In this document: positions 6,137 to 8,024 of the stretch, piece after piece
How positions within the stretch are numbered: position 1 is the stretch's first letter
Layout of the letters: the number at the start of each line of letters is the position of its first letter
DNA from: a virus
Taxonomy: Duplodnaviria > Heunggongvirae > Uroviricota > Caudoviricetes
IMG/VR virus record: IMGVR_UViG_2531839237_000019
Length of the DNA stretch: 8,037 bases
Reading direction: 5' to 3' (one strand)
Notes under the pieces: model-generated
Seen by the model: the letters and a program-made list of their open reading frames with translations, nothing else
What the model was told of the DNA's origin: nothing
Databases searched by the model: none
Program-made: the position numbers and the translations under genes

Positions 6137-6164
6137 ATGTTGATTACAAAAATGTAATCAACAT
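6137..6164. promoter_or_regulatory. 28-bp perfect palindrome (12-bp arms, 4-bp spacer); candidate dimeric regulator site
   Basis: ATGTTGATTACA-AAAA-TGTAATCAACAT; the arms are exact reverse complements. It lies about 27 bp upstream of a TATAAT hexamer and about 165 bp upstream of the ModA-like gene start. Confidence 0.45.
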
Positions 6165-6190
6165 GTAAGGTTTATACTCTTCAATATGCG

Positions 6191-6196
6191 TATAAT
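6191..6196 (+). promoter_or_regulatory. Candidate -10 hexamer (TATAAT) for the moron gene
   Basis: Perfect TATAAT in an AT-rich region with no convincing -35. A second candidate, TTGACT, lies at 6210-6215. Promoter assignment is unverified. Confidence 0.3.
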
Positions 6197-6328
6197 TTTC
6201 CTTATTTTGTTGACTTTAAATAACAAGCTATGCACGAGGTAAAGTCGGATAAGTTTATCTGGATGTAATATATATTATTTGTAGTGTTTATAACTTTATT
6301 TCATGATAACCAATAAAAGGAGTTTTTT

Positions 6329-7087
6329 ATGAGGAACATAATGGCAGGTTTTTTAATATTCCTGTCTTCTGCTGCTTATGCTGATATCAATCTGTATGGT
6401 CCTGGTGGCCCGCATACAGCCTTGCTTGATGCAGCCAAACTTTATGCCGAAAAAACAGGTATTATAGTGAACGTTCATTACGGCCCACAGAACAAATGGA
6501 ATGAAGATGCCAAAAAAAATGCAGATATCTTGTTTGGCGCATCAGAACAATCTGCTCTGGCTATCATTCGGGACCATAAAGACAGCTTCAGTGAAAAAGA
6601 TATTCAGCCTCTTTATCTGCGAAAAAGTATTTTACTGGTAAAGAAAGGTAATCCTAAAAATATCCGGAGTATTGACGACCTGACCAGACCTGGGATTGGC
6701 GTAATTGTTAATGATGGTGGTGGTACCAGTAATACATCAGGCACTGGCGTCTGGGAAGATATTGCCGGACGTAAAGGGAATATAGAAACTGTCGCCGCAA
6801 TCCGAAAAAATATTATTTTATATGCGCCCAATAGCGGAACTGCACGTAAGGCTCTTGAGAATCAGCCTGGAGCAGATGTCTGGATAACCTGGGCTGACTG
6901 GGCAGCCAGTAATCCAGAAATTGGTGATGTCGTGGAAATAGCGCCAGACTACGTGATATGGCGTGATATGAACATTACAGTACGTCAGGATGCAAATGAT
7001 GAAACCCGTCGATTTGCAGAATGGCTACAAACCGATGAAGCGGCGCCTGCATTCAAAAAATATGGCTGGACCAGGAAAGGCACTTGA
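6329..7087 (+). CDS. Secreted periplasmic substrate-binding protein, ModA-like (type 2 PBP fold), 252 aa
   Basis: AAGGAG SD lies 6 nt before ATG 6329, with a second in-frame ATG at 6341. The N-terminus MRNIMAGFLIFLSSAAYA-DIN looks like a signal peptide with an AYA cleavage motif. The C-terminus ...RRFAEWLQTDEAAPAFKKYGWT aligns with ModA ...KAFYDYLKGPQAAEIFKRYGFT, and the overall pattern matches molybdate/tungstate-type binding proteins. No permease or ATPase genes are adjacent. The gene is AT-rich. Confidence 0.8.
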   Translation: MRNIMAGFLIFLSSAAYADINLYGPGGPHTALLDAAKLYAEKTGIIVNVHYGPQNKWNEDAKKNADILFGASEQSALAIIRDHKDSFSEKDIQPLYLRKSILLVKKGNPKNIRSIDDLTRPGIGVIVNDGGGTSNTSGTGVWEDIAGRKGNIETVAAIRKNIILYAPNSGTARKALENQPGADVWITWADWAASNPEIGDVVEIAPDYVIWRDMNITVRQDANDETRRFAEWLQTDEAAPAFKKYGWTRKGT

Positions 7088-7090
7088 CAT

Positions 7091-7119
7091 CCTCGTCCTT
7101 CAGGACGTGGATTCTTTTT
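7091..7119 (+). terminator. Candidate intrinsic terminator after the binding-protein gene
   Basis: CCTCGTCC-ttca-GGACGTGG hairpin (one mismatch) followed by ATTCTTTTT, starting 4 nt after the stop codon. Confidence 0.4.
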
Positions 7120-7206
7120 CCGGATGCCGCGCCAGCGGCATGTAGGGGCAGCTCACAAAACGGAAAAAATTGTACGCTAAGCCTCGCCAGGTGAACTGAA
7201 TTCATT

Positions 7207-7230
7207 CCGATATGGGAATTCCCATATCGG
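7207..7230. promoter_or_regulatory. 24-bp perfect palindrome upstream of the hok promoter region
   Basis: CCGATATGGG-AATT-CCCATATCGG, exact 10-bp arms. No T-run follows, so a protein-binding site or RNA structure is more likely than a terminator. Confidence 0.35.
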
Positions 7231-7324
7231 GCGAAAACGGTTTGCTGTAACGGCAGAGTTAAGTAGGATTGCTGCGGGTGCTTGAGGCTATCTGCCTCGG
7301 GCATGAACACCAACGGCAGATAGA

Positions 7325-7378
7325 TAAAAGCCCCACCCGACTATAAATCGAAGTGAGGCCCCTATATGCTCGTCACAT
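7325..7378 (-). ncRNA. Predicted Sok-like antisense RNA of the hok locus
   Basis: On the minus strand a TTGACC -35-like hexamer (plus 7404-7409) overlaps the hok SD, with a weak -10 about 17 nt downstream. A hairpin GCCUCAC...GUGGGGC followed by UUUU (plus 7326-7362) could act as terminator. The transcript would be complementary to the SD and ATG of the upstream in-frame leader ORF (ATG 7366). Boundaries are approximate. Confidence 0.25.
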
Positions 7379-7422
7379 ATAGATTGCCTCTTACGGACCG
7401 AAAGGTCAAGGAGAAGCAGGCT

Positions 7423-7578
7423 ATGAAGCAGCAAAAGGCGATGTTAATCGCCCTGATCGTCATCTGTTTAATCGTCATAGTGACGGCACTGGTAACGAGG
7501 AAAGACCTCTGCGAGGTACGAATCCGAACCGGCCAGACGGAGGTCGCTGTCTTCACAGCTTACGAACCTGAGGAGTAA
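7423..7578 (+). CDS. hokD: Hok-family type I toxin (HokD/RelF-like), 51 aa
   Basis: MKQQKAMLIALIVICLIVIVTALVTRKDLCEVRIRTGQTEVAVFTAYEPEE is near-identical to HokD/RelF as recalled; the paralog assignment is from memory. AAGGAG SD at 7408-7413 with a 9-nt spacer. An in-frame upstream extension from ATG 7366 (the 70-aa track ORF) may be the mok-equivalent leader ORF. Confidence 0.9.
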   Translation: MKQQKAMLIALIVICLIVIVTALVTRKDLCEVRIRTGQTEVAVFTAYEPEE

Positions 7579-7647
7579 GAGACCAGGCGGGGGAGAAATC
7601 CCTCGCCACCTCTGATGAATCAGGCATCCTCAACGCACCCGCACTTA

Positions 7648-7673
7648 ACCCGCTTCGGCGGGTTTTGTTTTTT
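7648..7673 (+). terminator. Intrinsic terminator of the hok transcript
   Basis: ACCCGC-ttcg-GCGGGT hairpin followed by TTTGTTTTTT. Confidence 0.7.
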
Positions 7674-7745
7674 CCTGGCATTCTGGTTTACAATTCGCAC
7701 GCCAGCCTGAACAACTGGCACCTGCTGCGCCAGCAGAGACAACCG

Positions 7746-8024
7746 ATGGCGCACGATACCAAATTATACAATTCTGATGATTCTGCCGTCTTTGCCAGCA
7801 GGCGCGGACGGTGTTTTCACGCATTCAAATCTGACTGGTACCAGCATCCCCCATGCACTGAAGAACAGGCCGAATGGCTCATTCAGTGTTACCGCAGGCG
7901 CGGATGCGAGGTTAAAAAAGCCCTTAGCCTCGACTACCGTCACTGGATAATCTCCGTCAGGCTCCCTTACTCCGAACGGCCACCGCGTCCGTCCCGCACA
8001 TTCCAGCAACGGATCTGGAGGTAA
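7746..8024 (+). CDS. Small Cys/His-rich hypothetical protein (92 aa), possibly the rem-position gene next to hokD
   Basis: The track ORF starts at TTG 7665, inside the hok terminator; the first ATG is 7746 (MAHDTKLYNSDD...). It contains CFHAF...HPPC...QCYRRRGC, with spacing suggestive of a metal-binding motif. Position matches the gene adjacent to hokD in Qin from memory; identity is unverified. Confidence 0.45.
   Translation: MAHDTKLYNSDDSAVFASRRGRCFHAFKSDWYQHPPCTEEQAEWLIQCYRRRGCEVKKALSLDYRHWIISVRLPYSERPPRPSRTFQQRIWR

Follow-up and report, generated by a model that had tools for sequence, protein, structure and literature searches.

Genes and signals of the locus

The window analysed here is a stretch of 8,037 nucleotides of viral DNA (IMG/VR record IMGVR_UViG_2531839237_000019). 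Toward its 3' end lies a gene for a small toxin of the Hok family together with a leader reading frame, mok, and the signals expected of a hok mRNA. The toxin ORF, hok (7423-7578, plus strand), codes for 51 amino acids. We found a full-length match of this ORF to the Pfam profile HOK_GEF (PF01848; E = 1.7e-21, 75.9 bits), as anticipated in an earlier note made from the sequence, and the protein was aligned with its K-12 and phage 933W counterparts. A single substitution, Ile17 for Thr, separates it from K-12 HokD, and the ORF is annotated as hokD in hundreds of genomes. The Shine-Dalgarno (SD) sequence of hok is GGAG (7410-7413, 9 nt before the ATG at 7423), which was partly paired with UCUU (7389-7392) in the fold of the full-length RNA.

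The leader ORF mok (7366-7578, plus strand, 70 codons in the ORF list) starts at the ATG at 7366, in frame with the hok ATG at 7423, and has its own SD, GAGG (7355-7358), 7 nt upstream of the start; here too the earlier reading was right. For comparison, 34 loci that code for relatives of Hok were collected from GTDB genomes, and their leaders were located with Rfam. In most of the loci a mok-type ORF, preceded by a GAGG SD, begins about 57 nt before the hok ATG; in 933W it is annotated as mokW. The GAGG was invariant in an alignment of 28 loci. The mok frame coincides with that of hok in most loci, 933W included, and is shifted by +1 in four of them (L009, L010, L025 and L027). As the mok start is conserved in position but not in frame, it appears to be the act of translation, and not the peptide, that is conserved.

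The Rfam family RF01794 matched 7276-7425 of the plus strand over its whole length (model positions 1-157 of 157) with 103.9 bits, compared to a gathering score of 59, and in each of the 31 loci tested the matching strand was the hok-sense one. The consensus of this family, named 'sok', runs from the 5' end of the hok mRNA to the hok AUG and therefore models the hok-sense leader.

A candidate hok promoter proposed earlier (7242-7269, plus strand) consists of a -35 hexamer TTGCTG (7242-7247), a 16-nt spacer and a -10 hexamer TAGGAT (7264-7269), with 7 of 12 positions in agreement with the consensus. The hexamers are where they had been placed, and the -10 element stood the comparison, with TAnnAT or TAnnTT found at a fixed distance from GGG(+1) in 30 of 30 loci. 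The -35 region, on the other hand, showed no conservation across the same loci, and the promoter fell below the threshold of a sigma-70 consensus scan. In the closest relatives the -10 element is TAGAAT, so that TAGGAT is one step weaker. We placed the +1 position at G7276 because of this fixed distance between the -10 element and GGG; G7276 is also position 1 of the RF01794 model. The predicted full-length hok mRNA then extends over 397 nt on the plus strand, from G7276 to the T-run of the terminator (7276-7672).

Toward the 3' end of the mRNA there is a stable stem-loop seen among the minimum free energy (MFE) helices (7567-7624, plus strand), with a core GGCGGGGGA/UCCCUCGCC at 7586-7607; the core hairpin is kept across the 28 loci. 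The stem-loop lies directly 5' of the fold-back element fbi described below, where the processed form would be expected to have its protective 3' end, and by analogy with the R1 model (PMC9841398) it likely serves as that protective end. The transcript would finish at an intrinsic terminator, AACCCGC-TTCG-GCGGGTT followed by a T-run (7647-7674, plus strand; stem 7647-7664). This was the only terminator found in a scan of 7100-7750. Every sequence string quoted in the earlier note was found at the coordinate assigned to it.

Prophage context

The window belongs to a lambdoid prophage of the kind found integrated at ompW in E. coli O157:H7. The EDL933 genome (NZ_CP008957.1) matched window positions 350-7672 with 99.6% identity, the homology thus ending at 7672. 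We observed that 555 genomes match the window over at least 80% of its length, and that phage records named 'PPompW' match it as well. The hok cassette itself recurs in 547 E. coli records with an identity of at least 99%. The only RefSeq annotation at the locus is 'hokD', which could be extended by mok, sok and the RNA elements.

The gene order was read from Pfam and from the RefSeq annotation of near-identical records. The DicF sRNA (109-158, minus strand) is followed by a cI-like repressor and Cro, then YdaT, DnaT-like and lambda-P-like replication proteins, DUF1627, a frameshifted fimbrial gene and the adhesin gene paa/adfO (6329-7087), which directly precedes the hok locus. The next gene after the locus is an ORF of 92 amino acids (7746-8024). 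In related prophages DUF968, RusA and Q come after this ORF. The slot that the hok locus occupies belongs to a Qin/Rac-like lambdoid prophage and is flanked by the replication genes and by the DUF968-RusA-Q genes. The cargo upstream of the slot varies; it is paa in the window, relBE in K-12 and a DUF551 gene in an O103 strain. The locus marks the boundary of a recombination module adjoining the paa/adfO adhesin gene. The prophage carries pseudogenes and may for this reason be defective. An inverted repeat (7138-7149 and 7358-7369) was regarded as due to chance.

It had been suggested earlier that this copy of hok lies in a neighbourhood different from that of K-12 hokD. This did not hold up. 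The K-12 gene sits in the same slot, upstream of the 92-aa ORF, DUF968 (ydfU) and Q; the downstream genes are common to both and only the upstream cargo differs. The gene rem, located downstream of hokD in K-12, is absent from the window.

Pairing between the two ends of the hok mRNA

The two ends of the predicted mRNA are complementary. The 5' element TGCGGGTGCTTGAGG (7273-7287) and the 3' element CCTCAACGCACCCGC (7628-7642) share a complementarity of 14 nt with one bulged C (7634). Two named elements of the hok family fall within it on the plus strand, tac (GGGUGCUUGAGG, 7276-7287) as the 5' arm of the fold-back helix and fbi (CCUCAA-C-GCACCC, 7628-7640) as its 3' arm. When the full transcript was folded, as had been proposed earlier, its 5' end paired with the 3' element. 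The MFE structure of the 397-nt RNA (7276-7672; -164.1 kcal/mol, z = -8.4) is closed by GGGUGC/GCACCC and UUGAGG/CCUCAA, with tac paired to 7635-7640 and 7628-7633.

Could this complementarity be a coincidence, the locus being a plain leader and toxin gene devoid of long-range control? Judged from the window alone, the duplex is moderately unusual. Nucleotides 7276-7289 bind the 3' UTR with -21.5 kcal/mol, an energy equalled by 14 of 2000 shuffled UTRs and, for the actual 3' UTR, by 12 of 7522 other 14-mers. Such figures leave some room for chance, as do the three outermost pairs discussed below, which are not conserved. Against it stand the closing of the MFE structure by this helix, the retention of the 3' arm as a relic in K-12 and, above all, the comparison with other hok leaders that the earlier note had asked for.

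In that comparison the partner of each 5' end was sought 50-70 nt past the hok stop. The tac/fbi duplex turned up in 28 of 30 loci, which come from five genera (Escherichia, Kluyvera, Photorhabdus, Pantoea and Erwinia), and its relative position was the same throughout. The two arms differ between genera in a compensatory manner, with GGGUGC/GCACCC in Escherichia and Kluyvera versus GGGCGC/GCGCCC in Photorhabdus and Pantoea, and likewise GAGG/CCUC versus GAGA/UCUC. We counted covariation on a plain, unbiased MAFFT alignment of the 28 whole mRNAs. The tac/fbi helix had 82% paired cells, compared to 35-53% when the partners were slid; the pair at nt 4 was U-A in 18 loci, C-G in seven and U-G in two. 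We consider this comparative evidence decisive for the predicted tac/fbi helix, and on the same data we regard the chance reading as refuted.

The extent of the pairing needs to be trimmed, though. A complementarity of 14-15 nt had been claimed and is indeed present, with its inner helix conserved. The outermost pairs, formed by TGC at 7273-7275 and GCA at 7641-7643, were ruled out by the alignment as part of the conserved helix, since at two of them 16 to 18 of the 28 loci were unpaired. These outer bases probably lie upstream of the transcription start at G7276. With this correction, the fold-back arrangement of functional hok mRNAs described earlier was borne out.

Predicted structural switch of the mRNA

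We folded the RNA at increasing 3' lengths by free energy minimization, a calculation which bears on no folding kinetics. Three states were obtained. The shortest RNAs, of about 55 nt or less, pair tac (nt 1-12) with its immediate downstream complement (nt 20-29; window positions 7295-7304, plus strand) in a hairpin that would be metastable, at a stage when the mok SD is not transcribed yet. In the folds of the first 25-55 nt the pairing joins nt 3-12 of tac to nt 20-29, and the 35-nt fold has an energy of -18.8 kcal/mol.

In RNAs of 365 nt or more, where fbi is present, tac pairs with fbi and the upstream complementary box, ucb (AAGCCCCAC, 7328-7336, plus strand), acts as an anti-SD of mok by pairing with the mok SD. 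Removal of the 3' end changes both pairings. In RNAs of 85-353 nt, tac (nt 1-8) pairs with ucb (nt 53-59), while the mok SD (nt 80-83) pairs mostly with nt 112-115 of the downstream complementary box, dcb (GCCUC, 7386-7390, plus strand). The pairing of dcb with the mok SD appeared in most of the 3'-truncated folds as well as in a centroid fold, and GCCTCTT at dcb is invariant in the 28 loci. The truncated state presents the mok AUG in a hairpin with the loop CUCGUCA.

Both the nascent 5' hairpin and the alternative pairings after 3' truncation were thus recovered in silico. The three computed states are those published for plasmid R1 (PMC9841398).

Predicted Sok antisense RNA and its target

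The hairpin exposed in the truncated state (7362-7382, plus strand) has a stem CUAUAUG/CAUAUAG around the mok AUG in the MFE folds, and its loop CUCGUCA (7369-7375) contains CUCG, a motif of the YUNR type. A predicted antisense RNA, Sok, has a single-stranded 5' tail whose sequence is complementary to the loop and to the 5' side of the stem.

A Sok-like transcript had been thought plausible on the minus strand around 7325-7378. The comparison with 933W agrees with this placement, as the sokW annotation maps to window positions 7374-7326 of the minus strand. From the homology to sokW and from folding, we predict a minus-strand Sok RNA of about 50 nt (GACGAGCAUAUAGGGGCCUCACUUCGAUUUAUAGUCGGGUGGGGCUUUUAUCU) with its 5' end at 7374 and its 3' end near 7322. 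It folds into a long hairpin with a single-stranded 5' tail of 9 nt and a U-tail (z = -4.7). The 5' tail is complementary to the mok start region in addition to the target loop.

The putative sok promoter (7381-7409, minus strand) was read from a minus-strand alignment of 27 loci and consists of a -35 hexamer TTGACC (7409-7404), a 17-nt spacer and a -10 hexamer CAATCT (7386-7381). The -10 element is poor, with 2 of 6 positions in agreement with the consensus. An identical layout, with CACTCT as the -10 element, is found in the hokC-like loci. Position, fold and promoter layout of the predicted Sok are conserved across loci. In the sigma-70 consensus scan of 7100-7750 on both strands no promoter was called, neither for hok nor for sok; we retained the two promoters on comparative grounds, not on their agreement with the consensus.

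Relative to 933W, the locus has two 1-nt indels which cancel each other, so that neither the mok frame nor the sok promoter spacing is changed. This argues for continuing selection.

Transcript starts in EDL933 and possible activity of the locus

Transcript starts were taken from the EDL933 Cappable-seq data for eight conditions (PMC10469882, Table S5). For the paralogous hokC locus of EDL933, the transcription start site (TSS) at 15721 is exactly the first G of GGGTGCTTGAGG, and the sokC start at 15620, predicted by homology, coincides with a TSS called in all eight conditions. The canonical hokC TSS, compared to that, was called in one of the eight. The hokC and sokC starts fall on nucleotides homologous to the starts predicted in the window.

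In the near-identical EDL933 copy of our locus the predicted +1 falls at 1854352, and for none of the eight conditions does the gene-TSS table give a TSS there. At face value this speaks against the model. The promoter is weak, however, and as the first 50 nt or so are identical to hokW of the same genome, reads may be ambiguous and multi-mapping may account for the absence. The only entry of the table at the locus was 1854439, from a single condition. It corresponds to window position 7363, 3 nt before the mok ATG; at hokC, a capped 5' end at 15629, flagged as differentially regulated, lies 1 nt before the mokC ATG. One could read these two ends as a second, internal start that gives a nearly leaderless mok-hok mRNA, mainly in stationary phase. 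Such an mRNA, made without tac, ucb and the mok SD, would escape the fold-back control and rely on Sok alone. We found no promoter in the sequence upstream of 7363 and think this reading very improbable.

The data raise the question of whether the cassette, intact in structure, is silent, a hitch-hiking remnant that makes too little hok mRNA or has Sok always in excess and so has no killing or stabilising effect. The weak promoter hexamers on both strands, the missing call at the canonical start and the ratio of calls at hokC and sokC all point that way. So do published results on chromosomal relatives. According to bioRxiv 10.1101/2025.08.07.668861, hokA, hokB and hokC are reported to give no killing after rifampicin, and no post-segregational killing in a study cited there (Pedersen and Gerdes 1999); the activity of the present copy is therefore not assured. 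On the other hand, every regulatory element is kept, the cancelling indels speak for selection that still operates, and the cassette is spread nearly unchanged over the 547 records mentioned above. The combination of a weak hok promoter with a strong sok promoter is the normal design of the family, and the hokW-sokW locus, 85% identical to the present one, is active (PMC8621323). Altogether we consider a silent cassette unlikely.

Proposed mechanism

We conclude, with a probability of about 0.9, that window positions 7242-7672 are a complete hok/mok/sok type I toxin-antitoxin locus of an O157:H7-type lambdoid prophage which most likely works as hok/sok of plasmid R1 does. This analysis established the sequence elements and the way they are conserved and covary, and it predicted the structural switch. 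Transcription, processing, toxicity, the action of Sok and the biological role are inferred from relatives, and so is the functional status of this copy; it is the relatives that provide the experimental support, since killing or growth arrest by Hok, its neutralisation by Sok and the cutting of the duplex by RNase III were demonstrated for hokW-sokW (PMC8621323) and for R1 (PMC9841398).

In this mechanism, the weak promoter would start a hok mRNA of about 397 nt at G7276, and during synthesis tac would be kept in the local metastable hairpin. In the finished RNA the pairing of tac with fbi would leave ucb free to sequester the mok ribosome-binding site; this form of the mRNA would be stable, untranslatable and poorly bound by Sok. 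Slow trimming of the 3' end would then take off fbi, upon which tac would move to ucb and the mok SD would pair with dcb. The switched form would expose the hairpin with the mok AUG and would be either translated or bound by the short, unstable Sok.

In the case of translation, ribosomes on mok would give access to the hok start, and the membrane toxin of 51 aa would be made. When Sok is bound, its single-stranded 5' tail would cover the mok start and RNase III would destroy the duplex. Since Sok would neutralise the switched mRNA in this way, toxin would appear only when the synthesis of Sok stops or Sok is lost. Loss of the element may bring this about, and so may prophage induction, as was shown for hokW-sokW.

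The same mechanism might serve a role other than addiction or maintenance, either lysis and phage release at prophage induction or abortive-infection defence against other phages. In its lambdoid prophage the locus is part of the early-right operon, with the replication genes on one side and Q on the other. Deletion of hokW-sokW halves the release of phage Sp5, and SokW falls after mitomycin C (PMC8621323). In addition, hok genes are about four-fold enriched in prophages, but the same study found no enrichment near defence systems (bioRxiv 10.1101/2025.08.07.668861). The position of hokW in 933W is also a different one, near the right end, and the present prophage may be defective, as its pseudogenes suggest. 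We hold such a role to be possible, at somewhat worse than even odds.

Comparison with known systems

The locus is a member of an already known kind of element, widespread and annotated. O157 genomes carry 12-14 hok genes (PMC2887945), and prophage copies with mok and sok are annotated in phage 933W (AF125520). Beyond annotation the importance of the locus is slight; it does show the ancestral form from which the truncated hokD of K-12 descended.

K-12 hokD (relF, Qin prophage) is 97.7% identical to the window over 7409-7672. The earlier note had described it as appended to relBE, and this is correct: hokD follows relE directly, and homology to the window exists only from 7409 onward, 14 nt before the hok ATG, where relBE abuts. 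The further claim that the K-12 gene lacks the regulatory elements is true of its 5' half, where the hok promoter, tac, ucb, the mok start, dcb and sok are gone and RF01794 gave no match to the gene. In the 3' half it keeps the hok SD, the ORF, the 3' UTR, fbi and the terminator.

A close known system is hokW/mokW/sokW of the Stx2 phage 933W (Sakai Sp5; AF125520), with about 85% nucleotide identity over window positions 7234-7650. Both loci are carried by O157 prophages, each has a mok of 70 codons that shares the frame of hok, and they are identical in fbi and over the first 50 nt of the mRNA. The N-terminal 44 residues of Hok match except for one, while the C-terminus differs. We also observed differences in the hok -10 element (TAGGAT here, TAGAAT in 933W), in the sok promoter (TTGACC-17-CAATCT here, TTGCCT-17-TAACCT in 933W), in the Sok hairpin, which is 21 nt shorter here, and in the terminator; hokW is situated near the right end of the phage genome and not in the nin region. 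The 933W system is toxic, is neutralised by sokW expressed from its own promoter and depends in part on RNase III and Hfq (Takada et al. 2021, PMC8621323).

With hokC/mokC/sokC (gef) the locus shares the short Sok hairpin and the sok promoter TTGACC-17-CAnTCT, features common to the hokC-like loci L014-L016. The Hok proteins are 78-80% identical; the 3' UTR and the genomic site (dnaJ-nhaA for hokC) differ, and the hok -10 element of hokC is the consensus TATAAT compared to TAGGAT here.

Textbooks have covered the hok/sok mechanism since the 1990s. The Sok of plasmid R1 has 64 nt, compared to about 50 nt predicted here. In a blastn search against plasmids, R1-type loci were not reached as the DNA similarity is too low; an R1-type IncFII locus, coding for the identical R1 Hok, was obtained by tblastn with the R1 Hok sequence. 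Its mok ATG is in the +1 frame relative to hok, while in the window the two are in frame, and R1 hok/sok is plasmid-borne whereas the present locus is carried by a prophage. The R1-type locus has the same architecture, with a -10 element, GGCGCUUGAGG at the 5' end, CUGAAGCGCC as fbi, the terminator, a mok start about 57 nt before hok and a match to RF01794 with 87 bits.

Boundaries of the hok cassette and neighboring genes

The near-identity of the window to the E. coli O157:H7 genome EDL933 (99.6%) ends exactly past the hok terminator, at window positions 7672/7673. Beyond 7673 the match to EDL933 picks up again in the 92-aa ORF (7746-8024), where identity is 86%. We also observed that a rem-like gene present in both EDL933 and K-12 is missing from the window. 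Given the identity break and the missing gene, the end of the hok cassette looks, on sequence comparison, like a recombination module boundary.

On the other side, two cargo genes (window 5599-7087) lie between the replication module and hok. The first, at about 5599-6077, is a fimbrial-protein pseudogene with a frameshift, and the second is the adhesin gene paa/adfO (6329-7087), a member of the AcfC family with the Pfam domain SBP_bac_11. A homolog of the DicF sRNA was found on the minus strand at 109-158; its score of 49.4 bits is just over the gathering threshold of 48. A related prophage (L001) has a copy that reaches 71.5 bits; by this difference in score, the DicF of the window is a divergent variant.

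Sequence elements near the hok promoter

A perfect 24-bp palindrome, CCGATATGGGAA/TTCCCATATCGG, with an EcoRI site inside, is situated at 7207-7230, 12 nt upstream of the hok -35 hexamer. The palindrome is kept, with the exception of one outer base, in an O103 prophage whose upstream gene differs, while sequence comparison with the Stx2 phage 933W showed no counterpart there. No T-run comes after the palindrome, so it does not readily read as a terminator; a protein may bind at this site.

The hok -10 hexamer (7264-7269) reads TAGGAT in the window and in the O157 strain Z1723. The copies from the panda strain, O103 and 933W have TAGAAT. Thus, the O157 hexamer is one step farther from consensus.

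Mapped 5' ends

In the Cappable-seq data for EDL933, a plus-strand 5' end at 1854439 (window 7363), detected in stationary M9 only, is located 3 nt 5' of the mok ATG. A similar 5' end in the paralogous hokC locus, at 15629 on the minus strand, is located 1 nt 5' of the mokC ATG; this one was seen under two stationary conditions and is marked as differentially regulated. We looked in the sequence upstream of these two ends for a -10-like hexamer and found none at either. They could be leakage of ends made by RNase III or other processing, or else mark a start that has gone unrecognised.

Another plus-strand 5' end, at EDL933 1854667 (window 7591), was detected in three stationary-phase conditions within the hok 3' UTR, where it falls in the 5' arm (7586-7594) of the 3' core hairpin. 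The authors of the data set attribute this end to the gene downstream; it may mark a fragment derived from the 3' UTR.

Variation and conservation within the coding region

Compared to the 933W locus, the window carries two 1-nt indels of opposite sign, at 7385/7386 and at 7406-7408. With both indels, mok on the plus strand stays in frame and the TTG-to-start distance of sok on the minus strand is unchanged. Two other loci with Hok relatives (L009 and L010) have the extra base only; there mok is in the +1 frame and the sok promoter spacer is 18 nt long.

The Tyr47 codon of hok, TAC, is followed by G, producing TACG (7561-7564), and the hexamer TACGAA at this site showed no variation among the aligned loci (28 of 28). 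TACG is the motif at which TadA performs A-to-I editing; in hokC, hokD and hokE this editing turns Tyr into Cys (PMC5630033).
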